A stretch of DNA of 18,061 nt from Chitinivibrionales bacterium (GTDB lineage: Bacteria > Fibrobacterota > Chitinivibrionia > Chitinivibrionales > WJKA01), in assembly GCA_038247415.1 (NCBI GenBank), contig JBBRUX010000062.1:1-18061 (forward strand), written 5' to 3'. Within the stretch, counting starts at the first letter, position 1. Every line of letters begins with the position of its first letter. The position numbers were made by a program, and so were the translations under genes. A model generated the notes under the pieces. It worked only from the letters and a program-made list of their open reading frames with translations. It searched no databases and had not been told where the DNA came from. Below are positions 1 to 13,567 of this stretch, piece by piece.

Positions 1-174
1 GTAGCGATCCGACCGTTCATCTTTATGACGTGCAATGCGATCGCGCATCTCATCATCGAATGCAACAGCAGTGGCAATAAAGCCGCGCTTGGTATAACTC
101 TTTTCTGCGAGCTCAAGTGCAAACGAGCTTTTGCCTGAACGCGATCCTCCGGTAATAAGTGTTATTTTTCCCAT
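1..174 (-). CDS. cobU: Bifunctional adenosylcobinamide kinase / adenosylcobinamide-phosphate guanylyltransferase, N-terminal 58 aa, truncated by the window edge
   Basis: Not in the ORF track. Manual translation from ATG at 174 gives MGKITLITGGSRSGKSSFALELAEKSYTKRGFIATAVAFDDEMRDRIARHKDERSDRY, with the CobU/CobP motifs TGGxRSGKS (P-loop), IATA and DxEMxxRIxxH. Overlaps the upstream gene by 13 nt. Confidence 0.95.
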   Translation of the reverse strand, partial: MGKITLITGGSRSGKSSFALELAEKSYTKRGFIATAVAFDDEMRDRIARHKDERSDRY

Positions 175-965
175 AATGCCTTTAATAATTCAACCGACGA
201 AAAGGTTTCATCCTGCGAAAAGAGTTCTATTGTAACGACCTTTGAATAATTTCTGAGCACCGTATTAATAAATAATTTCAGTTCTTCTTTATCATGATGA
301 ATCAATGACTTATGATCTTTACCCTCATGCAGGCCATGAAAATGGATAACGCGAGTCTGCGGTAACAATGCAGTGCAAATTTCCTGCCATGGCTGCTTAT
401 AAATCCACAAGTGACCAATATCAATACAGTGCGAAAACGAGTGTCGATTCACCAGCGGAATATTGAGCATTGCATCGTAGCCCAAGGTCTCGACACAGAA
501 TTTTTTTGGATCGGCATATCGAGCAAGGTCGGCACACACCGAATCGACCCGTTGTTTCCAAGGACCAACTTCGGATACTTCGTAGGGAAACCGAATTCCT
601 TCTAAATGGAGGATGTATCCAAATGGACCAAGCTGTTCTGTAAGTTCTATAACACTAATCGCCTGTTGTGTAAAAAAGAATCGTTCGCGTGGATCTTCCG
701 AGCCAGCTTTGCGATCGATAGGAAAATGGACGGTGTAGGTAATGTTGTACTGTTTCGAAAGTTCTGCGAGTTCGGCAATCACCAGCGGATCTGGCATATT
801 TGAGTAGTCACTCGACTCAAAAAGAACCAATTCAATATCATCAAATACCGGTGCGAGCAAACGCACATTCGGCACAATATCAGCTGGATACACGTAGGAT
901 GTGCAACCCAATTTAAAGGGAAAATGGTGTTTCTTGCTCATATTTTTCAGAGGTACCTCATACAT
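162..965 (-). CDS. cbiR: Cobamide remodelling phosphodiesterase CbiR-like (AP endonuclease 2 / xylose isomerase-like TIM barrel)
   Basis: 267 aa. N-terminal LGCTSYVYPADIVPNV..DDIELVLFES and metal-ligand-type motifs TVHFP, ILH, CVET, CIDIGH, VIHFHG..KDH, TIELF. Lies between btuF and cobU in a B12-riboswitch operon. Alternative start ATG at 941. Confidence 0.75.
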   Translation of the reverse strand: MYEVPLKNMSKKHHFPFKLGCTSYVYPADIVPNVRLLAPVFDDIELVLFESSDYSNMPDPLVIAELAELSKQYNITYTVHFPIDRKAGSEDPRERFFFTQQAISVIELTEQLGPFGYILHLEGIRFPYEVSEVGPWKQRVDSVCADLARYADPKKFCVETLGYDAMLNIPLVNRHSFSHCIDIGHLWIYKQPWQEICTALLPQTRVIHFHGLHEGKDHKSLIHHDKEELKLFINTVLRNYSKVVTIELFSQDETFSSVELLKALWEK

Positions 966-1018
966 TTATTGTGCATCATGCCCAACAAATTAAAATCCAA
1001 AAACTCATAGCATTACAA

Positions 1019-1921
1019 CTATCTGTCAATATTTTTTGGCTTCATTTTCTTAAGGCGCCACTCCCCCACAATTCTGCGCACATCACTCAGCAGCATCATG
1101 ATTCGCGGACTCGGGATTGTCGCATAATCGGCACTCACCGAAAAAACCTGGCTATCCTGAATTGCCGGAACCGTGGTAAAAATCTGCCAGTCCTTCTTGA
1201 GTTTTTGGGCTTGTGATCGATACTGCTCCATACTCGGCATGACATCAATAATGATATCCGGTTTTAACCGCATAATTGCTTCGGCGCTAATCGTTGGATA
1301 ATTTGCCGACGTGTCGCTCATAATGTTTTTAGCGCCTGCCAAGGTTATGAGTTCCCCATAAAACGTCCCTTGAGCTGCCACCCAGCACGACGACACTTTT
1401 CCTGTGCCAGCTCCATCGCGACCAATGGTTATCATGATTGATGGTTTTGGGGATGCAGTGTCGGCGCTCAACTTTTCCCGCATATTTTTGGTTAGCGAGT
1501 CACCTTTGGGTGTTGCTCCAAGATATTGGGCAATGGTATCAATAGAAGCAACCACCGCCGAAAGGTTGTGATCGTCTATGAGCACACATTTTATGTTTTG
1601 CGACTTACAAAAATCCGCAACTTTACTTTGTTCTTTAAGGATAAATACAAGATCCGGTTTCAGTGATAACATCACCTCAAAATTCGGATCGAGATATCCA
1701 CCCAAATGCTGAATATTCTTAACCTCTTTGGGCCACGTGCAAAAGTCGCTTACCCCTTTAACAACATTCCCTTTACCGATAAGGAATATAGTTTCGGTGA
1801 TGCTTGGGGCAAGAGAAATGACCCGTGTATAGGTAGCTGCAGTCGCATCCTTTGACTGCGTGCGACTCTGACAACCAAACACAAGAAGCGATAGTAATCC
1901 AGCCAAAAAAAGTCTAAGCAT
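1019..1921 (-). CDS. btuF: Cobalamin ABC transporter substrate-binding lipoprotein (helical-backbone metal receptor)
   Basis: 300 aa. Lipobox LVFGC; RVISLAPSITE, GVSDFC, PNFEVMLSLKPDLV, ISAEAIMRLKPDIII, PSPR. AGGA SD 7 nt before the ATG. B12 operon context. Confidence 0.85.
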   Translation of the reverse strand: MLRLFLAGLLSLLVFGCQSRTQSKDATAATYTRVISLAPSITETIFLIGKGNVVKGVSDFCTWPKEVKNIQHLGGYLDPNFEVMLSLKPDLVFILKEQSKVADFCKSQNIKCVLIDDHNLSAVVASIDTIAQYLGATPKGDSLTKNMREKLSADTASPKPSIMITIGRDGAGTGKVSSCWVAAQGTFYGELITLAGAKNIMSDTSANYPTISAEAIMRLKPDIIIDVMPSMEQYRSQAQKLKKDWQIFTTVPAIQDSQVFSVSADYATIPSPRIMMLLSDVRRIVGEWRLKKMKPKNIDR

Positions 1922-1932
1922 TGATATTTCCT

Positions 1933-3099
1933 TTACTTTCTCTCAACTATTGCCATAGAGCCAGGGTTTAATCCGGCAGTATTGGTAATAGTCGATCCGA
2001 TTTTCTGATTGGTTGCAGCATCAAAAACAAGCAACCCGCCTTTGCTAGTACCTTGTTCCCCAACATATAAACGCTGAATTACCGAATCGTAACAAATTCC
2101 TCCGTATGCATTGGTTATACCCGAAAGGGTTGCGACAACGGTTCCTGTGAAAAAATTTGCTTCTACTACGCGTACATCACCCCACGCTACATAGGTTTCA
2201 ACATACCAACTCGTTCCACCCTTGCAAACAATATGCTCGGGTCGTCCACCCAACGTCGATTTGCTTATTGCATTTGGCAGATGTTGTCTGTTAGTCAGGT
2301 TGAGCACTTCAACTGCTCCATCATTTAATGCATCGTAGCTGCCACACGACGTTACATACAGGAGGTTGTTTCGCAGCACCATTGATGTCGGATTGGTGTA
2401 AGCCAATGTGATAGTGTCAATTATTGTATTACTGTTTTTATTTATAAGCACAATCAAACCAGGTCCATAGAGTGCGGGAGAATCGGTAGTCCGATGATTC
2501 ATGAGAACATACACAGTATCCCCATATTGAGTAAGCGCTGTTGCGTAGGGGCTTGGTGTTGCACTTGTTGGCGTTGGATTATAACAATATGCAGCCGTTG
2601 AGATTCTCCCGGTTGAATCACCTGTCTCTGGGTTGACAATCAACACATAGGGAACATTCTCTGTTGCAACGAAAGCCTTGGTAGCATTAATTACTTCGAT
2701 ATCGAGCGGATTACAGTTATCTGCCAGACTCTTTTCATATACCACAGATTGTTGACCTAAAACCGAATCACCTTTATTCGGGTCGATCTTGAGGATATTG
2801 TCTGTCCCAAATCCCTCGAGTGCATACAGATACCCCCCAACATTTTTCAGTCGTACATCAGCCCCGATAGTGAGTGAATTCGATGCGTAACTTGACGAAG
2901 TATCATTCATCCAGTTAAGCTGACCATTAACATAATTGTTTGTGGCAACAAAGAGAACTCGAGAGGCATGCGAATTATCAAGAGGAGCCACGACTACCTT
3001 GGTATCAAATATACACCCGTTAAGAAGCACTACTCCCGATACGAGAGCCACAGCAAGCGACACAATTTTCTTCATTTTCATAATCATTAACCCTTTCAT
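1933..3099 (-). CDS. Lipoprotein with probable YncE/YVTN-type beta-propeller, BtuG-like putative cobamide-capture protein
   Basis: 388 aa. Basic N-terminus, hydrophobic stretch and lipobox LLNGC. Beta-rich propeller-like blades (NTIIDTITLAYTNPTSMVL, FDAATNQKIGSTI, NPGSMAI). Lies between btuB and btuF. True start may be 3087, 3081 or 3075 (AAAGGG at 3096-3091). Confidence 0.65.
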   Translation of the reverse strand: MKGLMIMKMKKIVSLAVALVSGVVLLNGCIFDTKVVVAPLDNSHASRVLFVATNNYVNGQLNWMNDTSSSYASNSLTIGADVRLKNVGGYLYALEGFGTDNILKIDPNKGDSVLGQQSVVYEKSLADNCNPLDIEVINATKAFVATENVPYVLIVNPETGDSTGRISTAAYCYNPTPTSATPSPYATALTQYGDTVYVLMNHRTTDSPALYGPGLIVLINKNSNTIIDTITLAYTNPTSMVLRNNLLYVTSCGSYDALNDGAVEVLNLTNRQHLPNAISKSTLGGRPEHIVCKGGTSWYVETYVAWGDVRVVEANFFTGTVVATLSGITNAYGGICYDSVIQRLYVGEQGTSKGGLLVFDAATNQKIGSTITNTAGLNPGSMAIVERK

Positions 3100-5252
3100 T
3101 ACAACGTGTAGGATAACGTACCGAAAAATCCCCTTCCGGGAAAAGGATTTGAACCGTACGCATCTCCGTAAAAAAAGACATTGGTGATATTATTTATTGC
3201 GAGAATTACACTCAAGCGGGGCCCCGCCAAAGCAGTAATTTTTGCATCATGGGTAAAGACAGATGGTCGTTGTAGTGTATTAGGATAATCGAAAAAAACA
3301 GGGCTTGAGTATGAAAAAACATAGTTCAGCGAGAGAAACGAAAGTGGTGAAAGAGTGGTTCGAAAAGTACCAGAAAGCACTGGTTCGTTAGGAATCTGTT
3401 TGAGCAACTGGTTCGCATAAATCGTGCGGCATAAAGGGTTTTGAAGCGTGCTCTGCGCCTCTATGCCCAACTTGTCATGAAATAGCGAGGTGCCTACATT
3501 ACACTCAAGGCCACTAATCCGCGCTTCGTCAAGATTACGTGCAACCATCCCTTGAGGAGTTGTAAGCAAGGAAATAGCCTGAGAGTTGAGAGTAGAAAAT
3601 AAAGCTACATCTCCAAAAAAATGGGCAGTTTTGATTTTAACTCCACCATCAACGGTTGTACCTTTTTCTACGTGTAAATGAGGATTCGGCATGACCGTTC
3701 CATTGCTGCCATACCGTTCCATGAGGGTTGGCCGGCGATAATAAGTACCAACATTCATGTAGGCCTTTACACATGTATGTGGCGATGCCCACACACCAAT
3801 TCTTCCTGATTGGTAATGAAAGTTACCTTCGCCGTTTAGAGAATCCACAAAAAATGTAGTGGGCATAAAATCACGTGTGCTGTTTGCACGCATATGCACA
3901 CCTTCGAGTTGCCCTGCAATAATTATCGATGCCCATTGTAACGGATTAATCGTTGCATCCACAGCAGCAGAGCCCGACACTTCATTATTATTGGCTTGCG
4001 GGTTTACAGCAATTTCTTTTGTAAACGATTTTGGAACAATTTCAGTGTATCGCCCAACCAGACTAGCATCTATGATGCAAAATTCTCCAGGACTAAACCA
4101 CATAAGATTCGATTTAAATAAGGCCCGATTCTCCTGCGTACCAATGTCAATTATTGGTAAAGAGCCCCATTGCGAGTTCACCTTGTCTAAATCTGTAAAA
4201 CTATAGCGCAACACATTTCCTGTGTATCCAAGATTACCACGCAACACAAACCCTTTGTCAATAAATTTAGTGTTTTTTCCATGCACCACAACATCGAGTC
4301 CTTCGGTTGCCAATGCTGCTGTGGGTGCTGGCCGCTGCTCGGATCGGGGAAGTCCTTGATGGCTTTGCTGATAGCGAATGGTCGCAGCCAATTCAGAAGA
4401 ATATTTCGGCATTGGTAACCGAATCCTGCTTAAGGCGGATATACCTCGATATTGAGCATTTCGTTGGTCTCGATACACATCATCAGCAGTATTATTCCCT
4501 GTTCCATTGCGATCTAAATAACGAAAGTCATTTTCTGCAGACTCATAGGAAATATTCGTGTATCCATCTGCCAATTTCAAATCGGGAATCGGATAAAAAA
4601 GTGCTATGGCAGACTGCATATGCCCGTATGAACCTGCACCGGCAATAATATCCCCTTTTAGTGAATCCACACGTGATGGAGTTTTAAGCACCACTGCCCC
4701 ACCGATGCTATTTCCGCCAAATGCTGCAGGTGTAATGCCTTTGTATACTGTAATATTGTCAATAAGCGAGGGTGAGATTTTACTTAAATCCACAGCGCTC
4801 CCATCGATACTATTTAATTGCATATCATCTAAAAACACTGCAACTTTACTACCAGGAATACCTCTGAGCGATACCGTTTGAAAGCTGCCTACTCCCCCAT
4901 ATTTTTTAGTTTGAATTCCACTCTGCGACGAAAGAATTTCAGCTATGTTTTTCCCGGCCCCCTGATATTCCTTGACCTTGACAATAGCAATATCTGAGGG
5001 AGTGACAAACACTTGATTGTGTCGAGTATCACGAACGCGTATTTCGTGGCGAATTGTATCTGCCAAAACGGGAGAAGTTACCTGCGAAGATGTATCTGAA
5101 AGGGTACCGGATGATGGGATTGAATCACTCAAATGAGAAGGAGCCGCTAATGAATTGGAAGCACTTGAATCTGCATTCGAAAATGCAAAAAAAACGAGTA
5201 TAACTATATACCCAATGCCATTACGAATATGAAAATAACAATAAGAAGACAC
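3099..5252 (-). CDS. btuB: TonB-dependent outer membrane receptor, BtuB-like (cobalamin)
   Basis: 717 aa, GTG start. Signal-like N-terminus; plug motifs AEILSSQSGI, VSLRG, VAVFLDD, ITVYKG, GGAV; barrel motifs YRRPTLMERY, PNPHLHVEKG, INNITN; terminal PGRGFFGTLSYTL. First gene behind a cobalamin riboswitch. Confidence 0.85.
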   Translation of the reverse strand: MSSYCYFHIRNGIGYIVILVFFAFSNADSSASNSLAAPSHLSDSIPSSGTLSDTSSQVTSPVLADTIRHEIRVRDTRHNQVFVTPSDIAIVKVKEYQGAGKNIAEILSSQSGIQTKKYGGVGSFQTVSLRGIPGSKVAVFLDDMQLNSIDGSAVDLSKISPSLIDNITVYKGITPAAFGGNSIGGAVVLKTPSRVDSLKGDIIAGAGSYGHMQSAIALFYPIPDLKLADGYTNISYESAENDFRYLDRNGTGNNTADDVYRDQRNAQYRGISALSRIRLPMPKYSSELAATIRYQQSHQGLPRSEQRPAPTAALATEGLDVVVHGKNTKFIDKGFVLRGNLGYTGNVLRYSFTDLDKVNSQWGSLPIIDIGTQENRALFKSNLMWFSPGEFCIIDASLVGRYTEIVPKSFTKEIAVNPQANNNEVSGSAAVDATINPLQWASIIIAGQLEGVHMRANSTRDFMPTTFFVDSLNGEGNFHYQSGRIGVWASPHTCVKAYMNVGTYYRRPTLMERYGSNGTVMPNPHLHVEKGTTVDGGVKIKTAHFFGDVALFSTLNSQAISLLTTPQGMVARNLDEARISGLECNVGTSLFHDKLGIEAQSTLQNPLCRTIYANQLLKQIPNEPVLSGTFRTTLSPLSFLSLNYVFSYSSPVFFDYPNTLQRPSVFTHDAKITALAGPRLSVILAINNITNVFFYGDAYGSNPFPGRGFFGTLSYTL

Positions 5253-5475: not shown

Positions 5476-5504
5476 AATATACATCGAATAGCCAAGGGTG
5501 TCAA
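5476..5504 (-). promoter_or_regulatory. Sigma70-type promoter of the cobamide operon
   Basis: TTGACA (5504-5499), 17-nt spacer, TATATT (5481-5476), ending about 20 nt upstream of riboswitch P1. Confidence 0.8.
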
Positions 5505-5585
5505 ATAGCCATCAAACTACCCAGCGAGTTGCTTAAACCAACATTCTTCGGGGTGAGTTACGCCTGACTTTCGCTGCGAAAGCAA

Positions 5586-7352
5586 CTATTCTGATGCTGT
5601 CCACAATCCTAACCCAGGGTTTGAGACAGCAAAAAAATCATCTCCGTCGACTGTTTGATAGAATCCTGTATGGCGATCCGAGCCGTAACGGGCAATAATA
5701 CTTTCCGGATCTGCCCACTTAAAACCCACCGATTCTATTTCTTCTTTTGTCATCTTTGTTGTAGCGTAGGTTATTGAAAACCGGCCTTCGCTTGATCCAT
5801 GGATAAGGTGGGCCGCCACACTCAGCGAATCTGCAAGTTCGTTACCCTCTTTGACCCACGCAAGGATCTGGTCTCGCGAACGGTATCCGTACTTACGGAT
5901 GAGCGCATCGGCAGCCGGGTCTTCGCCAAACCGTTCGATGTCAGGTGCGACAACAATCAATTCCCCTCCGTGCGCCATTGCCATGCGAGTGCGATAAATG
6001 GCCTTGTTGCCAAGCCATGTGCTGTGGTATTCGCCACGCGGAAGATAGACAACGCATTTTTTGAGCGGTTGTGACAAGTGTGTGATATTGACTTGCGCAG
6101 AAAGCTGCGATGCATCTTCGAAGCACTGTTGGCCGGAGCCGACATACAGGCCGCGCACATGCTTACCCGATCCGTCAATTACTGTTAGAACGTAAATGAT
6201 TGGCACATCATCAAGAAACCGCCGTTGCGCTTCGGAAAAAAGCGCGCGTACCGGATTGACCGCCTTCCCCATGATGCGCTCCATACCATACACCGCACCG
6301 AGAAAGTGCGTAGCGTCAATGCTTCTTTTCCCACCGCAGCCAACGAGAATGTTTTTGCTGTGATTTGCCATGCCGGCAACTTCGTGGGGGACGACCTGGC
6401 CGATTGATAGGATGCAATCCAATGACTTGTCTGTCAGGAGCCGGTTGACCTCCACAGGCCATGGCTCTGCTATCAGACCCTCCGAGACAGACGACACAAA
6501 CCCACCTGGAATTTCCCCGAGGAGCTCAAGATCATCGCGCCAGGAGTGGTTGACTATGAGGGACTGAGGAATAGCGCCGAACATTCGCCGGATTTCGTCC
6601 CCGTGCATTGGCTGGTGCGATCCGAGGGCCGGAAGGATCGCCGAGACCGAAGTGCCAAAAAACTCACATGCGTATCGCGTCAATTCTCCTGCACGAGAAG
6701 TAAAGCGGGTAATATCGGGGGGAATGATGAGAACTTTTTTGCGCGTGCCAAGCTTCTCCAAGGCAGCACGAAGCCCATCGCGAAGCTGCTGCGGGGAAAG
6801 TGACGTCTGGGGGGATCCTGTTGACAAAAGGGTTTGTTGCCGTAACGGGAAAACACCACCGGGGTGCGTGCGTATCAAAGTGATGTGCCGAATAATTGTA
6901 TCACACATCTGCAGCGGCGTTGAATCGATCGGGATCCTGATCGCATCGGAAGGTTCCTCAAGCGCCGAAAGCTGGCTGTCAAGCAGTCCGGGTGAGAAAA
7001 AATGCCCCGAGCGGGTAGTGAGCCGTTTCAGCAGCACTTCCCGAGGGCCCACGAGATACACATAGGTGACCGGTCCTCCTGCGCTGAGGATATCCCGATA
7101 CTTCTGTTTAAGTGCCGAACATGCAAGCACTGCATTGCCAGCGCTGTTGCACTCTCCGATCTTCCGGGCAAGTGCGGCAAGCCAGGGAAATCGATCGTCA
7201 TCATCCAGCGCAATTCCCGCCGACATTTTTCGTTTGTTTGCTTCGGGGTGAAAATCGTCCCCATCAAAAAAAGGGATCTTCAACTCTTGTGCCACAAGCT
7301 GGCCAACGGTTGTCTTGCCCGACCCCGAAACGCCCATGATTACATAAACCAT
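5586..7352 (-). CDS. gntK: Fusion protein: N-terminal gluconokinase (GntK/IdnK type) plus C-terminal LarA-family (lactate racemase domain) nickel-pincer epimerase, probable D-mannonate/D-gluconate 2-epimerase (GntE-like)
   Basis: 588 aa uninterrupted ORF. Residues 1-~157 carry MGVSGSGKTT, DGDDFHPEANKRKMSAGIALDDDDRFPWL, LACSALKQKYR and RSGHFFSPGLLDSQLSALEEP. Residues ~175-588 carry PPDITR, ALGSH, VVPHEVAGMANHSKNILVG, ATHFLG and STWLGNKAIYRTR. GGAG SD in the end of the upstream gene. Confidence 0.85.
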   Translation of the reverse strand: MVYVIMGVSGSGKTTVGQLVAQELKIPFFDGDDFHPEANKRKMSAGIALDDDDRFPWLAALARKIGECNSAGNAVLACSALKQKYRDILSAGGPVTYVYLVGPREVLLKRLTTRSGHFFSPGLLDSQLSALEEPSDAIRIPIDSTPLQMCDTIIRHITLIRTHPGGVFPLRQQTLLSTGSPQTSLSPQQLRDGLRAALEKLGTRKKVLIIPPDITRFTSRAGELTRYACEFFGTSVSAILPALGSHQPMHGDEIRRMFGAIPQSLIVNHSWRDDLELLGEIPGGFVSSVSEGLIAEPWPVEVNRLLTDKSLDCILSIGQVVPHEVAGMANHSKNILVGCGGKRSIDATHFLGAVYGMERIMGKAVNPVRALFSEAQRRFLDDVPIIYVLTVIDGSGKHVRGLYVGSGQQCFEDASQLSAQVNITHLSQPLKKCVVYLPRGEYHSTWLGNKAIYRTRMAMAHGGELIVVAPDIERFGEDPAADALIRKYGYRSRDQILAWVKEGNELADSLSVAAHLIHGSSEGRFSITYATTKMTKEEIESVGFKWADPESIIARYGSDRHTGFYQTVDGDDFFAVSNPGLGLWTASE

Positions 7353-7355
7353 ATG

Positions 7356-8198
7356 TTACACTCCACAATAAGCCGAAAAACCGCCATCAACCGGAAGAAC
7401 TACACCAGTAATGAAACGCGCAGCGTCGGAGAGAAGGAACAGAGCTGCGTCGGCAACTTCCCGTGGATCGCCAAATCGCCCCATGGGCGTGTGTGCAAGA
7501 ATCTTCTGGGCACGCTGCGTTGGCTGACCAGATTTCTCATCGAGCAAAAGGAAACGGTTTTGGTCGGTAAGAAAAAAACCTGGCGACACCCCATTCACCC
7601 GAACATTGACAGGGGCAAAATGTACAGCCAGCCACTGAGTGAAATTATTAATCGAAGCTTTTGCTGCTGAGTAGGCAGGGATTTTTGTAAGCGGCCGAAA
7701 TGCGGTCATAGACGAAACCGTAATAATCGATCCACTGCGGGCTGCTGCCATGTCTTGCGCAAAAACCATGCAGGGAAGAATGGTCCCTTTGACATTGAGG
7801 TCGAATACCTCATCAAAACCGTCTATGTCAAGCCCGAAAAAGGTTGACTGGAAATCGTTTGCGGCGGACAGATCGAGTGCTTCTCGCTTTGTTGTAGCTT
7901 TGGGAGAATTCCCGCCTGCGCAATTAACTAGCATTGAAACCGGACCGATGGATTGACTTATTGCAGTGCGGACCTGCATGAGGGCGTCCCGACTCAGGAC
8001 ATCTGCTGCATATCCAACACAAACGCCTCCACACTCACGGGAAATCTCAGTGGCGAAACGTTCGGCCTTGGCTCGATCACGCCCAAGAATTACGGTCTTG
8101 ACACCAACGCTCACAAGGGCGCGGGCAATAGTACTGCCGATTGCGCCGGTTCCGCCGGTTACAACAGCAACCGATCCGGGAAATGAGAATTCGTTCAT
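7356..8198 (-). CDS. uxuB: SDR-family D-mannonate oxidoreductase (fructuronate reductase)
   Basis: TGGTGAIG, NCAGGNSPKATT, SSMTAFRPLTKIPAYSAAK (YxxxK), FTQWLAVHFA, PGFFLTDQNRFLL and HTPMGRFG match the Bacillus/Bacteroides-type UxuB SDR. Directly follows uxaC. Start set at ATG 8198 (AAAGGA 6 nt upstream). Confidence 0.85.
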   Translation of the reverse strand: MNEFSFPGSVAVVTGGTGAIGSTIARALVSVGVKTVILGRDRAKAERFATEISRECGGVCVGYAADVLSRDALMQVRTAISQSIGPVSMLVNCAGGNSPKATTKREALDLSAANDFQSTFFGLDIDGFDEVFDLNVKGTILPCMVFAQDMAAARSGSIITVSSMTAFRPLTKIPAYSAAKASINNFTQWLAVHFAPVNVRVNGVSPGFFLTDQNRFLLLDEKSGQPTQRAQKILAHTPMGRFGDPREVADAALFLLSDAARFITGVVLPVDGGFSAYCGV

Positions 8199-8213
8199 CA
8201 CACGTCCTTTGCG

Positions 8214-9611
8214 TTAATAGTTGAAATAGCTGAGCGCATTTATGGAACACAGGGAGGATACCAATTCATCAAGCATTTTTTCGTCGTCCGGAAACAAACC
8301 AGCAGTAACCTGTTTGCCAATCCATCCACACAAGACCCTACGGAAAAGCTCGTGCCGGGGGAAAGAGAGAAGTGAGCGTGAATCGGTGGTCATGCCAATA
8401 AATTGCCCAAGAAGTCCGAGTTGACTTAGTGTATTGAGGTGGCGCTCCATCCCGCTGCACTGATCCATGAACCACCATGCGGGGCCCCACGAAATCTTGC
8501 CGGGAGATGACCCGTCTGCAAACGCACCAACAAGCGCCATTAACGCTTCGTTATCGCGGGGGTTGAGATTGTAAAGCACCGTTTTCGGCAGGGAGTTGAC
8601 AGTATCCAACGCATTGAGCAGCGATGCAAGCGGACGGATGATGTGCGCATCATCAATGATGTCCCCTCCTGCATCGGCGCCGGCAGCGCTATGGAGTCTT
8701 GTCCGGACATTGCGCAGGGCACCTGCGTGCAGTTGCCAGACCCAGCCTCGACGGTGATATTCCCGGCCAAGCTCCAGAAGAACTGCTGTCTGGAGGATTG
8801 ATCGCTCGCGCATGTCGATTGGTTGACCATCGGAAGCTTTTTTGAAAACCGGCCCAACAAGATCTCGGGCATTGTCGCAAAAAAGCGGCGGTTCGAGCGA
8901 ATGGTCGGCACACCGGCAGCCGGCTGCATCAAACGCATCCATTCTGTGCACGAGAGCTTCCATCAGCGTGTCAATGGATGAAATAGCGACATTAGCAGCA
9001 CTACCCAGTCGTTGCAACCACTCCTGATACAGCAGGGGTGCCGTAATGTTGAATGCCTTATCGGGGCGGAAAGTCGGCAACACCCTTATTTCAAAGTCGG
9101 ATTCACGCAAAACCGTATGATAACGTAGATCATCGCATGGGTCATCGGTCGTGCACAATACACTGACGTTCATTTTCCGCAGCAGATTCCGTGCAGAAAA
9201 ATCGGGAGCTTGCAAAAGGGAAGATGTGTGTTGATAAATATCAACGGCAGTCTCAGGCGTTAAAAGCGTTTCGATCCCGAAATATCGTTTCAATTCCAGA
9301 TGCGCCCAGAGGTACAGCGGATTGCCCTGCGCCTGCGCAAGGGTGTTTACCCATGCGGTGAATTTGTCGTTCCATTGCCCATTGCCCGTGCACAGCGACT
9401 CGTCAATACCGTTACTACGCATGGCACGCCATTTGTAATGATCGGCACCAAGCCAGACCTGGGCAAGATTATCAAAGCGGACATCCTCGGCAATTTCCCG
9501 CGCGCAAAGATGATTGTGGAAGTCAACAATCGGCCGCCCTTTTGCGCAGGAGTGGAACAGGTTCTGTGCCACGCTGGTTGACAGGAGAAAATCGTCGGAG
9601 AGAAAGCTCAT
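8214..9611 (-). CDS. uxaC: Uronate (glucuronate) isomerase
   Basis: MSFLSDDFLL, PIVDFHNHL, WLGADHYKWRAMR, GNPLYLWAHLELKRYFG, CTTDDP, PTFRPD, QLHAGALRN, GPAWWFMD, GMTTDSRSLLSFPRHELFRR. Start moved to ATG 9611 (AAAGGA 6 nt upstream), giving 465 aa. Confidence 0.95.
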   Translation of the reverse strand: MSFLSDDFLLSTSVAQNLFHSCAKGRPIVDFHNHLCAREIAEDVRFDNLAQVWLGADHYKWRAMRSNGIDESLCTGNGQWNDKFTAWVNTLAQAQGNPLYLWAHLELKRYFGIETLLTPETAVDIYQHTSSLLQAPDFSARNLLRKMNVSVLCTTDDPCDDLRYHTVLRESDFEIRVLPTFRPDKAFNITAPLLYQEWLQRLGSAANVAISSIDTLMEALVHRMDAFDAAGCRCADHSLEPPLFCDNARDLVGPVFKKASDGQPIDMRERSILQTAVLLELGREYHRRGWVWQLHAGALRNVRTRLHSAAGADAGGDIIDDAHIIRPLASLLNALDTVNSLPKTVLYNLNPRDNEALMALVGAFADGSSPGKISWGPAWWFMDQCSGMERHLNTLSQLGLLGQFIGMTTDSRSLLSFPRHELFRRVLCGWIGKQVTAGLFPDDEKMLDELVSSLCSINALSYFNY

Positions 9612-9654
9612 GGTAAATCCTTTGTTAACCGTCCAGTAACCCATTGCCTTTGCA

Positions 9655-10521
9655 TCAACAATCCGCAAGCAACTTTTCCATTCGATGGCCATACTCCACG
9701 AACGTATCAAACATTGCCTCTGCCGGAACCTTCATCGAATCATGCGCGACCACCGAGAGATGCGGTTCTATGGAAATGTAGCCGCTGTATCCCGACTTTT
9801 TCAGGTCGGCGCAAATTCTTCTCACCGATCCATCACCTTCGCCGGGGTAGGAATACTCCATTGCGCCGTTGACTATCCGACCATCTTTGATATGGACATG
9901 GGATATGTGATCTTTAACATTTTGATAAAAACCCCATGCGTCTTGATACCGAAACGGCTTCTCACCGCAAATATCTTTGCGAAAGACCGGATTGCCCGTA
10001 TCGAGGGCCAGCTTGAAATTGGGGGATGCAATTGCATCAATCAACCTAAGCGTGTGCTCATGCGACCGCCCACCCCAAGTGTCGCAATTTTCGTGGACAA
10101 GGGTAACCCCGCCATCTTCTGCGATACGTGTCAAGTGGCGCATGCGTTGAATCACCTCCGCGGTCACCTGCGGATCGTTGACACTCCCATCTTCGGGAAC
10201 TGAAAAACTCATCACCCGAATAAGGGTAGTGCCCAACCGGTGCATCCTGAGAATGGCGCGGTGCAGCTGAGCATAGCTGGATTCGGGAGCCGCGCTTAGA
10301 GGAGTTGCCCAATTGGCGATGGCGCTACCAAAGCAACAGATGCCAACATTGGCATCCTGAAGTTTTTGGCAGACACCATCGAAGGCGCTATCGTCAAGAT
10401 TTGTGAGGTTGATACCATCAATATTCCGGCACTCGATGGATGTCCACCCAAGGGCGGCCACGGCTCTCAGTTGACCATCGAGATCGGGCGCTGCTTCGTC
10501 GAAAAAACCGGTGAGCTGCAT
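9655..10521 (-). CDS. Sugar phosphate isomerase/epimerase family (xylose isomerase-like TIM barrel), substrate unknown
   Basis: 288 aa. LTGFFDE, LVHEN, ALDTGN, HVHIKD, PGEGDG and ISIEPH give the typical E/D/H/E metal ligand set. Confidence 0.85.
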   Translation of the reverse strand: MQLTGFFDEAAPDLDGQLRAVAALGWTSIECRNIDGINLTNLDDSAFDGVCQKLQDANVGICCFGSAIANWATPLSAAPESSYAQLHRAILRMHRLGTTLIRVMSFSVPEDGSVNDPQVTAEVIQRMRHLTRIAEDGGVTLVHENCDTWGGRSHEHTLRLIDAIASPNFKLALDTGNPVFRKDICGEKPFRYQDAWGFYQNVKDHISHVHIKDGRIVNGAMEYSYPGEGDGSVRRICADLKKSGYSGYISIEPHLSVVAHDSMKVPAEAMFDTFVEYGHRMEKLLADC

Positions 10522-10524
10522 TGT

Positions 10525-11682
10525 TTACACCTTTCCAAACGAGCCAACAGTGTTGACATGGATCACTTTGGAAACCTTCTTTTTTATCGTTGATGATGCA
10601 ATAAGCTTCTTGAGCATGGTTTCGTAGGTGCGGCCGTTGATGGGCAAATTAATCTTCTTCCCGGTTTTTGATGAGAGTACCATTGCGTTTGCAAGCTCTA
10701 CCGATCGGATTCCTTCTTCAGCCGCAGCAATAAGCGGGGTTCCTTTGAGTATTGCGTCAATAAAGTTTTGCAGCACTTCGGCATGTTGTCCGCCGTTGCC
10801 TGAAACCGAAATGTCAATTTCCCAGATTTCCGGCGCAGCAAATGGATTATCCGATGATTTGAGGAATTTTATCGATGATACACTATTGCGGGTAAAATGG
10901 ACCGTCCCGTTTTCCACTACCACTTTTCCACGTTCACCGCAGATTTCGAGGCGGTTGGTGCCAGGGGCTTCACCGGTAGAGGTGATAAAAATTCCTGTGG
11001 CGCCATTAGGATATTCTAAATAGGCTGTTACTTCGTCTTCAACTTCGATGTTATGCCACTTACCAAAATGACAAAAGGCAGTAACCGATGTGGGCATCCC
11101 GCACAGCCATTGCAACAAATCGATGTTATGCGGGGACTGGTTCATCAGCACTCCCCCGCCCTCACCCGCCCATGTGGCACGCCACGATCCGCTGGCGTAG
11201 TAGCATTCAGGCCGAAACCAATTGGTAATAATCCAATTGACACGAACGATTTCTCCCAGCTCCCCGTCCTCAATAAGTTTCTTGACTTTTGTGTAATGTG
11301 GGTCAGTGCGCTGATTGAACATAGCTGCGAAGACCTGTTTTTTGTTTTTGCGTGCAGCAATCAGGCGCAAACAGTCGGAAACGTGCACCGATAGGGGCTT
11401 TTCTACCAGAACGTGCAGCCCTGCAGCAAGAGCGTCGATGCCTATTGTCGTATGCGAATAATGGGGTGTAGCGATAAGCACTGCATCGATCTCACCGGAT
11501 CGTATCATATCTTTTGCATCGTAGAAAGCATGGCAGCCAATTTCTGCGGCCTGCGCATCGGCGCGGTCGTGGAGGATATCGCACACCGCCGTAATGGTCA
11601 TGTTTTTTATCTGACTGCGATAACGGATGTGATAGGTACCCATATTTCCCATGCCAACAATACCGAGTCTGACGGTGTCCAT
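10525..11682 (-). CDS. Gfo/Idh/MocA family NAD(P)-dependent oxidoreductase
   Basis: RLGIVGMGNMG, AVLIATPHYSH, HVLVEKP, WRATWAGEGGGVLMNQSPHNIDLL, EVEDE. Start set at ATG 11682 (AGGAGG 6 nt upstream), giving 385 aa. The frame is open up to ATG 11793. Confidence 0.92.
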   Translation of the reverse strand: MDTVRLGIVGMGNMGTYHIRYRSQIKNMTITAVCDILHDRADAQAAEIGCHAFYDAKDMIRSGEIDAVLIATPHYSHTTIGIDALAAGLHVLVEKPLSVHVSDCLRLIAARKNKKQVFAAMFNQRTDPHYTKVKKLIEDGELGEIVRVNWIITNWFRPECYYASGSWRATWAGEGGGVLMNQSPHNIDLLQWLCGMPTSVTAFCHFGKWHNIEVEDEVTAYLEYPNGATGIFITSTGEAPGTNRLEICGERGKVVVENGTVHFTRNSVSSIKFLKSSDNPFAAPEIWEIDISVSGNGGQHAEVLQNFIDAILKGTPLIAAAEEGIRSVELANAMVLSSKTGKKINLPINGRTYETMLKKLIASSTIKKKVSKVIHVNTVGSFGKV

Positions 11683-11821
11683 TGTGTCCCTCCTGTAAAT
11701 ATGTTTTTTCAACTGAGATGTTCCGCGAAATTGTATCAAACCAGCCACTTTATTGCCAGTCAGCCCCCGTTCCAAAGTAACGCCGAATTTCATGGGTTTC
11801 CTTTCATAAAGTTTTTAAAGG

Positions 11822-12591
11822 TCATGACAGCCCAAAGCGACGGGAAAGAAACTCATAGCTCATCGCAAGCGACGCGAGCGGATCGTTATTAACCCAGTGC
11901 GCATCCTGTTCCACGATGATCCATTTGGTTCCGCTCTCCTGCGCAGCCCCGAGGATCCCCTCCCAGTCAAGGTTTCCGCTTCCAATCTCCCTAAAACACG
12001 GAGCCCCGAATCATCAATCCCGTAATCCTTGACATGCAGAAGCGGCAGACGGTCTTTGAGCCGCCTGATCCACGCAACGGGATCCCCGCCCCCTGCCTGC
12101 ACCCAGTAGGTGTCAAGCTCCGATTGCAGGTTGCTCGCGACGGTCAGCTCATAAATCCATTCCAGGATCGGTTTGCTTTCGATCCTGCGAAACTCCAGCG
12201 CATGGTTATGATAGGCAAGGATGCATGATGCATCCCGCAATGCCTGTCCCGCGGCATTGAGCCGTTTGGCAAATTTCCTGACATCCCCCATGCTCATCAA
12301 AGGAATCGGCCCGGGATGCGGTACTGCAGTGGCGCAGCAGTGCAATGCACCAAGCCTGTCAATGACTTTCCGGGGATCATCAAGGATATCTGTCGTGCTT
12401 TCGTGGGTAATGCAGCACTCTATCCCCAGCGCCGTCAACCGCTCATGGATCTTTTCGAAGGGAACCGATGAAATCCCGGAGATCTGAACACCGGTGTATC
12501 CCATTGCCCTGATTGTTCCAAGAACATCCGCCAAAGACGCTTCGTCATGAATTAATGAACGCACGGTAAACATCTGCGCTGCTAGTTTCAT
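11822..12591 (-). pseudogene. Sugar phosphate isomerase/epimerase (TIM barrel) interrupted by a 1-nt frameshift near 11993-12007 (pseudogene or sequence error)
   Basis: The first frame gives MKLAAQMFTVR..AYHNHALEF..ELDTYWVQAGGGDP..LLHVKD and then loses family character. The -1 frame continues FREIGSGNLDWEGILGAAQESGTKWIIVEQDAHWVNNDPLASLAMSYEFLSRRFGLS to a TGA at 11824-11822, the expected family C-terminus. Restored length 256 aa. Confidence 0.85.
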
Positions 12592-12692: not shown

Positions 12693-12725
12693 TTTTCTGG
12701 CCATAAACATTCTCTTTTCTGCCAT
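12693..12725. promoter_or_regulatory. Candidate AraC-family operator (imperfect tandem direct repeat)
   Basis: TTTTCTGGCCAT (12693-12704) and TTTTCTGCCAT (12715-12725), with GCCAT cores 21 bp apart, in the divergent intergenic region. Confidence 0.35.
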
Positions 12726-12730
12726 TGATC

Positions 12731-13567
12731 ATGAATAACCACATTTGCAAATACTTTGAGCCGATCTACAGCCACTCATATGAGCTCGAATCGTTCCAGC
12801 CTCCGCTTGTGGTGCAGGCCGCGTTATACTCACGATGGGGACCGGGCGACGGATTTGCTTTCCAGAAAAAAATGCACACATCTCTTAATCTCATTACTGC
12901 CGGAGATGCCAGATTCTCCCAAAATGGCAGGACTGGCATCGTTCACACAGGGGAGCTCTTTTTAGCGCACCAAGGGCAAAGCCAACAGTTGTCAACTGGT
13001 AACGCTGGATATCTGCATAAACGGAGCCTTGTTATTGACGGATGGATGGTGACCCCGCTGCTGGAGCGACTGGGGCTGACGGGAGTCGATGTGGTGCGGC
13101 CGGCCAATCCGGTGTATGTTGTCAACCTTTTAAGGAGGTCGCTTTCCTGCATCAAAGATAAAAAGGATGGATTTGCCCAGCAGACTTCACTCCTTTTATA
13201 CGAAATTCTCATGGAGCTTGGTCGAAGCATCGCGCATGAGCATCCTCCCTCGGTGCTGCATGCAATTAGCTTTGTCCAGAAAAACATTGCCCGGGAAATT
13301 ACTCTTGAAGCAATTGCCGCTTCGGTCAACCTCAGCGTTCGGCAATGTTGTCGGCTATTTCAGGCGTCGATGGGTTGTTCGCTGATGCAATTTGTTATTG
13401 GTCAACGGCTGGCCATTGCGCGGGATCTGCTCGCCAACTCATCCCTATCAATAAAAGAAATTGCAGGACGTGTAGGGTATGGCGACCCATTTCATTTCTC
13501 TATTCAATTCAAGCGCCGTTTCGGGGCTAGCCCAAAATTGTTCAGGGAGAGTTCACCCGACCGGTAA
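12731..13567 (+). CDS. AraC family transcriptional regulator, divergent from the sugar-acid operon
   Basis: C-terminal double HTH ITLEAIAASVNLSVRQCCRLF..SIKEIAGRVGYGDPFHFSIQFKRRFGASPKLFR and a cupin-like N-terminal region. ATG 12731 preferred over TTG 12725. Confidence 0.93.
   Translation: MNNHICKYFEPIYSHSYELESFQPPLVVQAALYSRWGPGDGFAFQKKMHTSLNLITAGDARFSQNGRTGIVHTGELFLAHQGQSQQLSTGNAGYLHKRSLVIDGWMVTPLLERLGLTGVDVVRPANPVYVVNLLRRSLSCIKDKKDGFAQQTSLLLYEILMELGRSIAHEHPPSVLHAISFVQKNIAREITLEAIAASVNLSVRQCCRLFQASMGCSLMQFVIGQRLAIARDLLANSSLSIKEIAGRVGYGDPFHFSIQFKRRFGASPKLFRESSPDR

Follow-up and report, generated by a model that had tools for sequence, protein, structure and literature searches.

The stretch of DNA analyzed here, called the window below, is the complete 18,061-base contig JBBRUX010000062.1 of a Chitinivibrionales bacterium. 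It is part of a 3.84-Mb genome assembly (GCA_038247415.1) that consists of 99 contigs and is rated 96% complete. Its minus strand carries, in this order, a glucuronate isomerase gene (uxaC), a gene for an SDR-type D-mannonate oxidoreductase, and an open reading frame (ORF) in which a gluconokinase of the GntK/IdnK type is joined to an epimerase domain of the LarA superfamily. A sequence-only reading of the window had singled out this ORF as a bifunctional enzyme and had identified its second half as the mannonate/gluconate epimerase GntE. The fused architecture, the operon, the catalytic residues intact in either half, and the presence of the cofactor genes and of a gene for the downstream enzyme are matters of observation and are described first. 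From sequence and genomic context we infer the substrate of the protein, the order of its two reactions and any channelling between its domains.

A genuine fusion of two complete domains

The fused gene (5586..7352, minus strand) translates into 588 residues followed by a single terminal stop, with no internal stops, exactly as had been read from the letters. An AlphaFold2 model of the protein, built on nine fused homologues, has a mean predicted local distance difference test (pLDDT) score of 87.7 and a predicted template modelling score of 0.72. Because the pLDDT drops below 50 solely at residues 162–170, and because Met1 of stand-alone proteins of the same LarA group aligns with approximately residue 172 of the fusion, the linker between the domains is estimated at about 10 residues (162–171; Table 1) and not at the 20 or so (6884–6819) supposed earlier. 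Its length is not constant across the nine aligned fused proteins.

The junction was checked over positions 5500–7500 in assembled Logan contigs from four public sequencing runs; these are contigs and not raw reads. The contigs of all four runs span the linker without a single substitution, insertion or deletion. The stop or indel that could have been hiding in the linker, a danger the sequence-only reading had itself pointed out, is thus absent from the contigs of all four assemblies. The gene fusion is genuine.

Table 1. Positions in the window of the fused gene's parts, of its operon partners, and of the contigs that cover the junction.
Feature	Positions	Strand	Basis or remark
GntK/IdnK-type gluconokinase domain, N-terminal, aa 1–161, Walker A G7..K13-T14	6870..7352	-	TIGR01313, phmmer, Foldseek
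Inter-domain linker, about aa 162–171, THPGGVFPLR	6840..6869	-	low pLDDT, alignment to stand-alone starts
LarA-superfamily group-18 domain (assigned from sequence), C-terminal, aa 172–588	5589..6839	-	NF052594, Lar_N, 4nar
Stop codon of the fused gene, the operon's final gene	5586..5588	-	translation
SDR-type D-mannonate oxidoreductase (fructuronate reductase)	7356..8201	-	NF006132, 360.7 bits (cut-off 281)
Glucuronate isomerase UxaC	8214..9710	-	NF002794, 528.2 bits (cut-off 387), aa 34–497
Junction contig X1, record 1	5500-7500		run possibly the source of the contig itself
Junction contig X2, record 5	5500-7146		other sample, study of X1
Junction contig X3, record 10	6051-7164		other sample, study of X1
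Junction contig X4, record 13	6759-7013		different study

The N-terminal half is a complete kinase of the GntK/IdnK type, a P-loop family with a shikimate-kinase-like fold, as had been proposed. It matches TIGR01313 ("gluconokinase, GntK/IdnK-type") at residues 3–149 with 163.7 bits (cut-off 113.75), covering model positions 1–154 of 164, and Pfam SKI at residues 10–115. The solved gluconokinases 3t61, 1knq and 4eun are matched by phmmer (E 3e-34 to 1e-30). In Foldseek the modelled domain (pLDDT mainly 83–94) superimposes on the gluconate kinases 1knq, 1ko4 and 4eun with template modelling (TM) scores of 0.84–0.86 on the target and root mean square deviations of 1.8–2.4 Å, and E. coli GntK is 40% identical to it. 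The Walker A loop reads G7-VSGSG-K13-T14, and the DGDxxHP, DDDRxPWL, CSALK and RxxHF blocks are all kept. The catalytic residues of both halves are invariant across the nine aligned fused proteins; in the kinase, aligned to 1knq and 3t61, the invariant residues are G7, G12, K13, D30, D32, H35, D51, D53, R54, W57, C78–L81, R110, R114, H117 and F118.

The C-terminal half is an equally complete domain of the LarA superfamily, whose members are 2-hydroxyacid racemases and epimerases dependent on the nickel-pincer nucleotide. Pfam Lar_N (PF09861) matches residues 200–351 with 45.2 bits (cut-off 23.3), and the NCBIfam model NF052594, "nickel-dependent putative hexonate epimerase" (NPN_18), matches residues 182–585 with 563.4 bits (cut-off 500). 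Against the malate racemase and LarA models the same domain reaches 59 and 27 bits, respectively, which upholds its proposed separation from the lactate/malate racemases. The nearest solved protein is GntE2 of Thermotoga maritima (TM0442, 4NAR; phmmer E 2e-42). It also heads the Foldseek ranking of the model (TM 0.79 on the target), followed by lactate/malate racemases and then by gluconate kinases, and TM scores against the LarA folds 4nar, 2yjg, 5huq and 6c1w lie between 0.69 and 0.79. All five catalytic motifs that had been picked out by eye (DxTR, GSH, PH, NHSKN and ATHF) were found, at D213-I-T-R216, G244-S-H246, P322-H323, N330-H-S-K333-N and A347-T-H349-F. When a profile of 13 group-18 domains is aligned to the lactate racemase apoprotein 2yjg, they fall on the DxxR, GxH, PH, Lys and His positions of LarA. 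With numbering mapped by motif context, H246, H323, K333, H349, D213 and R216 correspond to the two catalytic His of LarA (H108 and H174), the cofactor-tethering Lys184, the Ni-binding His200, D72 and R75, and these six residues also agree with the columns of Dataset S2 in PMC7583248. The five motifs are unchanged in 9 of 9 fused proteins and in 13 of 13 group-18 domains.

The LarA half belongs to group 18

Desguin et al. (2020) sorted 354 LarA homologues into 25 groups (PMC7583248). Members of group 20 (T. maritima GntE2, 4NAR) and group 19 (Corynebacterium glutamicum GntE1) epimerize D-mannonate to D-gluconate in vitro, and for group 18 ("G2E3", 25 members) the authors hypothesized a hexonate substrate (PMC7583248). 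A 2024 follow-up adds further GntEs, including a eukaryotic one (PMC11770544). The published signature of group 18 covers 20 LarA positions (D R H H E V K H V W L N K S/G A A L I H S; PMC7583248). Compared with Dataset S2 of that study, the C-terminal domain of the fusion matches all 20: D213, R216, H246, H323, E324, V325, K333, H349, V368 and W446, and then L447, N449, K450, S511, A513, A514, L516, I517, H518 and S520. These positions are likewise invariant (20/20) across the 13-sequence group-18 alignment.

The signatures given for group 19 (W-T-A-K ... G-L/I-A-S-T-H-R) and group 20 (E-S ... W-T-G-K ... N-A-A-V-I-N-R; PMC7583248) are not present in the fusion, which has W-L-(G)-N-K and S-(V)-A-A-(H)-L-I-H-(G)-S instead. 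An active site of the nickel-pincer nucleotide (NPN) type, an EV/ES loop and the Trp of helix alpha-11 are common to groups 18–20, whereas the GntE1 and GntE2 signatures differ from the fusion at LarA Q295, V297, T353, W358, A360 and I362 (PMC7583248); GntE2 (4NAR) is 26% identical to the fusion in Foldseek. Because groups 19 and 20 deviate at several signature positions, sequence places the domain in group 18, as a sister of GntE1 and GntE2 and not as GntE proper. The identification as GntE was therefore right about relatedness, 4NAR being the nearest solved protein, but not about the group itself. Stand-alone group-18 proteins (NF052594) resemble the fused domain in family score and in all 20 signature positions; the fusion adds an N-terminal gluconokinase.

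Operon and genome content

The three genes of the operon are separated by 12 nt and then by 3 nt, the stop of the SDR gene sitting 3 nt ahead of the ATG of the fused gene. The family match of UxaC begins only at residue 34, so the gene probably begins at the ATG at 9611. Downstream of the fusion, a promoter-like site close to consensus (5504-5476) precedes a cobalamin riboswitch (RF00174, 5293-5468, minus strand, 80.1 bits). Since these begin a new transcription unit, the fused gene is the last of its operon.

Genes for the NPN cofactor are present on other contigs of the assembly: LarE (320.5 bits, cut-off 150), LarC (191.7 bits, cut-off 90) and LarB (274.1 bits, cut-off 175). In this 96%-complete assembly the fused ORF is both the sole match to Lar_N and the sole match to TIGR01313 above its cut-off. 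Gnd was found as well. There was no match to UxuA in the genome (with this model only; the enolase-type mannonate dehydratase was not searched for), and none to Edd above the cut-off of the one model used.

Fused and split relatives

The fusion is rare but not unique. Among the best 120 matches of a word-index search were at least eight further fused proteins of 584–603 residues (P0002–P0007, P0013 and P0067), 44–54% identical to the query over 99–100% of its length. When 1.84 billion cluster representatives were searched exhaustively with a profile, there were 13,930 matches. The best 150 of these include four full-length fused representatives (P0067, P0238, P0239 and P0001, the window protein itself) and two shorter proteins (P0283 and P0302) that match across both domains. 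With the window protein, at least 11 full-length fused proteins are thus in hand, all 11 passing TIGR01313 and 10 of them NF052594; P0239 misses the cut-off of 500 at 477 bits. The ten others dispose of the concern, raised with the original claim, that relatives might all have separate genes.

In a search of a plasmid collection, two records covered at least 80% of the query, and they show the fused and the split state side by side. A plasmid of Saccharobesus litoralis CCB-QB4 carries a fused RefSeq gene (WP_159084288.1), whose product name is just "gluconokinase, GntK/IdnK-type". Downstream of it stand a hypothetical gene, larB, a TauE/SafE gene, a gene of the tagaturonate-epimerase (UxaE) family and gnd, with uxaC nearby. 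Plasmid pCadTS8_2 of Catenovulum adriaticum has the order uxaC, three TRAP genes, gntK (160 aa), larAH (430 aa), larC and larB, and there the ATG of larAH and the stop of gntK share 1 nt. The LarA protein of C. adriaticum is 81% identical to the fused domain of S. litoralis and shares a clade of full support with three fused proteins. In S. litoralis the end of the kinase passes straight into the former Met-Thr-Tyr-Pro start, leaving practically no linker, so this fusion looks like a simple loss of the stop. Both organisms are Gammaproteobacteria, and their proteins are 45–47% identical to the window protein; they have the same domains in the same order, beside uxaC and gnd or lar cofactor genes. 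T. maritima, by contrast, has gntE and gntK as two genes (cited in PMC7953866 and PMC6978723).

The fused gene occurs in none of 60 relatives of the window genome from the same family or order. A group-18-like match was present in 19 of them, a GntK-type match alone in 13 and both in one (G022). The G022 locus reads MFS gene, small ORF, gnd, uxaC, mannonate oxidoreductase, gntK (169 aa) and larAH18 (423 aa, 593 bits), the last two overlapping by 14 nt; the order is that of the window, in the split state. In another of the relatives, G031, the LarA match contains two stop codons.

A LarA-domain tree was built from 11 fused and 54 unfused proteins chosen by hand (12 close unfused proteins from the word-index search and 42 full-length cluster representatives), omitting fragments and proteins with other extensions. 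The fused label changes eight times on this tree, and well-supported branches force at least five of these changes. Forcing the 11 fused rows to be monophyletic, in a set of 67 rows that included the two split-adjacent proteins, costs 623.7 log-likelihood units (approximately unbiased test, p 1.5e-50). Because a single clade of fused LarA domains is rejected in this way, the fused or split state must have switched several times; the changes were counted without direction (fusion or fission), as the trees have no rooted species framework behind them. In an 82-row tree of the kinase domain, 27 of 79 inner branches are unresolved, and the fused kinases lie beside different stand-alone gluconokinases. 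They are 55–59% identical to such ordinary gluconokinases and form no family of their own. We propose that the fusion derived from an adjacent, translationally coupled gntK-larAH18 pair, of the kind seen in the two split loci.

Unfused group-18 genes and other fusions

A scan of genome contigs found a group-18 relative in at least 595 species and kept 80 loci, all of them unfused. Stand-alone group-18 proteins have ~420–440 residues, and the closest ones among the best 120 matches are 54–57% identical to the domain of the fusion. Within 6 kb of the 80 unfused genes, tblastn found Gnd, the commonest neighbor, at 40, UxaC at 28 and, at 24, an SDR with 45% identity or more to that of the window; 58 loci have one or more of the three. 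A Pfam scan of 115 neighboring ORFs, taken from the first 20 of 40 loci with full flanks and excluding ORFs above 700 residues, gave SDR at 12 loci, Gnd at 10, UxaC at 8, UxaE at 7, a PfkB-family kinase at 5 and a PdxB-like dehydrogenase at 4. SKI and FGGY kinases were not seen beside any of these 20. By these counts, which agree with the neighbors tabulated for group 18 in Table S1 of PMC7583248 (SDR 36%, 6-phosphogluconate dehydrogenase 32%), a context leading from hexuronates to 6-phosphogluconate is general for the group.

The PfkB-family proteins (weak matches, ~357–419 aa) are encoded no more than about 1.3 kb away from the unfused group-18 gene at loci L018, L020, L029, L036 and L047, and they are candidate hexonate kinases where a GntK-type gene is missing. 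At L036, L038, L044 and L047 the epimerase gene is followed by one for a PdxB-like 2-hydroxyacid dehydrogenase, three of which have a DUF3410 domain. One protein of 823 residues, P0255, represents a second type of natural fusion, with a group-18 domain at residues 8–422 and a C-terminal GlcNAc 2-epimerase/AGE-superfamily domain (PF07221, 156.6 bits).

The kinase, for its part, is a habitual fusion partner of its pathway neighbors. Most of the 120 proteins listed out of 1103 matches are Bacteroidota fusions of a GntK-type kinase to Gnd, annotated just as Gnd (NADP-dependent phosphogluconate dehydrogenase). These proteins (~620–645 aa) share the N-terminal kinase family with the window protein; their partner is the enzyme of the following step and not the preceding epimerase, and they are far commoner. 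In 115 of the 117 GntK fusions checked, the kinase occupies the N-terminus. Occasional fusions of GntK to an MFS transporter were also noted (P0152 and P0227).

Proposed pathway and its alternatives

We propose that the fused protein is a bifunctional enzyme that acts epimerase-first in a route from glucuronate through fructuronate, mannonate and gluconate to 6-phosphogluconate, a reading to which we assign a probability of roughly 0.55. UxaC would convert D-glucuronate to D-fructuronate, and the SDR would reduce fructuronate to D-mannonate. LarB, LarC and LarE would make the NPN that loads the C-terminal domain. This domain would then invert C2 of D-mannonate to yield D-gluconate by way of a transient 2-keto intermediate, with the hydride passing to the cofactor and H246 and H323 shuttling protons. 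With ATP, the N-terminal P-loop kinase would phosphorylate gluconate at C6, and Gnd would carry the resulting 6-phosphogluconate on to ribulose-5-phosphate and the pentose phosphate pathway. Being irreversible, the kinase step is expected to drive the reversible epimerization, and the route would complete the use of glucuronate without a dehydratase.

The net conversion of mannonate and ATP to 6-phosphogluconate is suggested by the architecture, the residues and the context taken together. We favor the epimerase-first order because groups 19 and 20 use free mannonate, because the kinase is an ordinary member of the GntK family, and because E. coli GntK was reported to be unable to use mannonate (Cohen 1950, as cited in PMC6978723). 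The idea of consecutive steps on one chain fits the operon and the genome content; that epimerization precedes phosphorylation, as the sequence-only reading had also assumed, is a presumption, and the opposite order has a biochemical precedent.

Several points weigh against this proposal. The group-18 substrate is a prediction, and a published assay of any member was not found in the portions of the LarA-homologue studies PMC7583248 and PMC11770544 available to us. GntE1 has a very high KM for mannonate (PMC7583248). The kinase half misses the equivalog models NF008583 (134.8 against 265 bits) and NF007336 (119.7 against 304 bits) for E. coli GntK and IdnK, and its scores mark it as a GntK/IdnK family member that is not an equivalog of the enterobacterial enzymes. 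A GntK-type kinase was detected by tblastn within 6 kb of none of the 80 unfused group-18 loci, so that partnership with GntK is the exception in group 18, and among the 60 relatives of the window genome group-18 LarA and GntK-type matches nearly never co-occur, G022 being the sole exception. Finally, a kinase-first order does occur in nature, as extracts of Lactobacillus suebicus show; without ATP, these extracts did not turn mannonate into gluconate (PMC6978723).

That precedent gives substance to a different reading, in which a mannonate kinase at the N-terminus would act first and the LarA domain would be a 2-epimerase interconverting 6-phosphomannonate and 6-phosphogluconate. L. suebicus achieves the same net conversion in a uronate pathway lacking UxuA, its extracts forming 6-phosphomannonate in an ATP-dependent reaction and interconverting it with 6-phosphogluconate by enzymes whose genes were not assigned (Valk et al. 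2020, PMC6978723). The failure of the kinase half to reach the E. coli equivalog cut-offs would suit a mannonate kinase. Weak hints in the same direction come from the uniform placing of kinase before epimerase (in all 11 fused proteins and both split pairs), from LarA positions Q295, V297 and I362, where group 18 has L/N/S against T/A/R or T/G/R in groups 19 and 20, and from an extra invariant Arg of group 18, R456. Against it, the substrate of the sister groups 19 and 20 is free, unphosphorylated mannonate (PMC7583248), the fused kinases lie among stand-alone gluconokinases and not in a separate family, and the candidate epimerase of L. suebicus is described as aldose-1-epimerase-like, use of a LarA homologue there being conjectural (PMC6978723). 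We judge the kinase-first reading to be unlikely, yet serious enough to be kept in view. Its most specific form, that the fusion and the coupled pairs encode the very mannonate kinase of Valk et al. (2020) together with a group-18 6-phosphomannonate 2-epimerase, strikes us as a little less likely still; if true, it would set group 18 apart from GntE1 and GntE2 by its phosphorylated hexonate substrate, and would provide the first NPN enzyme acting on a sugar-phosphate and the genes for two orphan activities.

It is also conceivable, though improbable, that the LarA domain uses some other 2-hydroxy acid (a different hexonate or uronate-derived compound) and that the kinase is tied to it only through common regulation or a common scaffold, or else phosphorylates some product that is not gluconate. 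Group 18 is, after all, named merely a putative hexonate epimerase, LarA homologues are promiscuous with up to 16 substrates (PMC11770544), and other partners turn up at the unfused loci (the PfkB-family kinase at 5 of 20, UxaE at 7 of 20 and the PdxB-like dehydrogenase at 4 of 20). On the other hand, the fusion partner is of the GntK/IdnK type in 11 of 11 fused proteins, Gnd, which uses 6-phosphogluconate, neighbors half of the unfused genes (40/80) and stands in the same operon in both G022 and S. litoralis, and the gene directly upstream of the fusion encodes a mannonate oxidoreductase, gluconate being the C2 epimer of mannonate. An artefact of assembly or sequencing, or a recent read-through with one half left inactive, is in our view a highly improbable source of the fusion. 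The assembly is of metagenome type and in 99 contigs, the fused state is absent from the 60 relatives, and support for the junction comes from contigs and not from raw reads; yet four assemblies from two studies are identical over the junction, ten other fused proteins (eight of them listed at 44–54% identity) retain the catalytic residues of both halves, and the ORF holds the sole GntK and the sole LarA homologue of a genome that retains LarB, LarC and LarE. The epimerase-first route to 6-phosphogluconate remains the reading we prefer.

Relation to earlier work

The components, the pathway idea and the prediction of the group-18 substrate have already been published (2012, 2020), and the family has been named by NCBI; what is new is the architecture. 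The idea of the pathway goes back to Rodionova et al. (2012), as cited in PMC7583248, PMC6978723 and PMC7953866. In the literature on gluconokinases, LarA homologues and nickel-pincer enzymes we found no description of a natural GntK-LarA fusion, and the available text of PMC11770544 mentions no natural fusion. The S. litoralis CCB-QB4 genome paper, in the portion available, gives the uronate genes and does not mention the fused gene (PMC7953866). The statement in the sequence-only reading that no fusion of this kind was known to be characterised holds for papers; fused proteins are nonetheless in public databases, among them WP_159084288.1, a RefSeq entry from a cultured bacterium. Similarly, the argument from fusion to substrate made in the sequence-only reading sharpens the prediction but does not originate it, for that prediction was already in print and in NCBIfam.

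The gain is accordingly modest: the substrate had been predicted, the family named, and a fused gene deposited in RefSeq under an incomplete name. Even so, group 18 is one of the largest groups of LarA homologues, with at least 595 species genomes, and its fusion to a gluconokinase, recurring in several lineages and accompanied by mannonate oxidoreductase and Gnd genes, is the strongest genomic evidence yet for gluconate or its 6-phosphate as the product or substrate of the group. The fusion also offers a single polypeptide on which both reaction orders can be distinguished. A route of this kind would take uronic acids to ribulose-5-phosphate while bypassing the branch through the dehydratase and 2-keto-3-deoxygluconate (KDG), and Valk et al. 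(2020, PMC6978723) see interest in such metabolism for using pectin-rich feedstocks in a redox-neutral way.

Other features of the window

The genes led by the cobalamin riboswitch (162-5252, minus strand) encode a TonB-dependent receptor, a 388-residue protein without a family match, a BtuF-like binding protein and CbiR, a remodelling phosphodiesterase. This unit looks like an operon for B12 uptake and cobamide remodelling. Upstream of uxaC (9655-12591, minus strand) lie genes for a xylose-isomerase-like TIM-barrel protein, a Gfo/Idh/MocA oxidoreductase and a second TIM-barrel protein. In one TIM-barrel ORF of this group (11860-12591, minus strand, 243 aa), the final ~50 residues are rich in Arg, Ser and Gly, unlike the remainder, and the family match covers residues 97–189 only; the ORF may be a frameshifted or truncated gene. 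An AraC-type regulator gene (12725-13567, plus strand) is divergent from the TIM-barrel and oxidoreductase genes. The pairing of a Gfo/Idh/MocA oxidoreductase with a TIM-barrel protein was seen again beside group-18 genes at loci L019 and L029.

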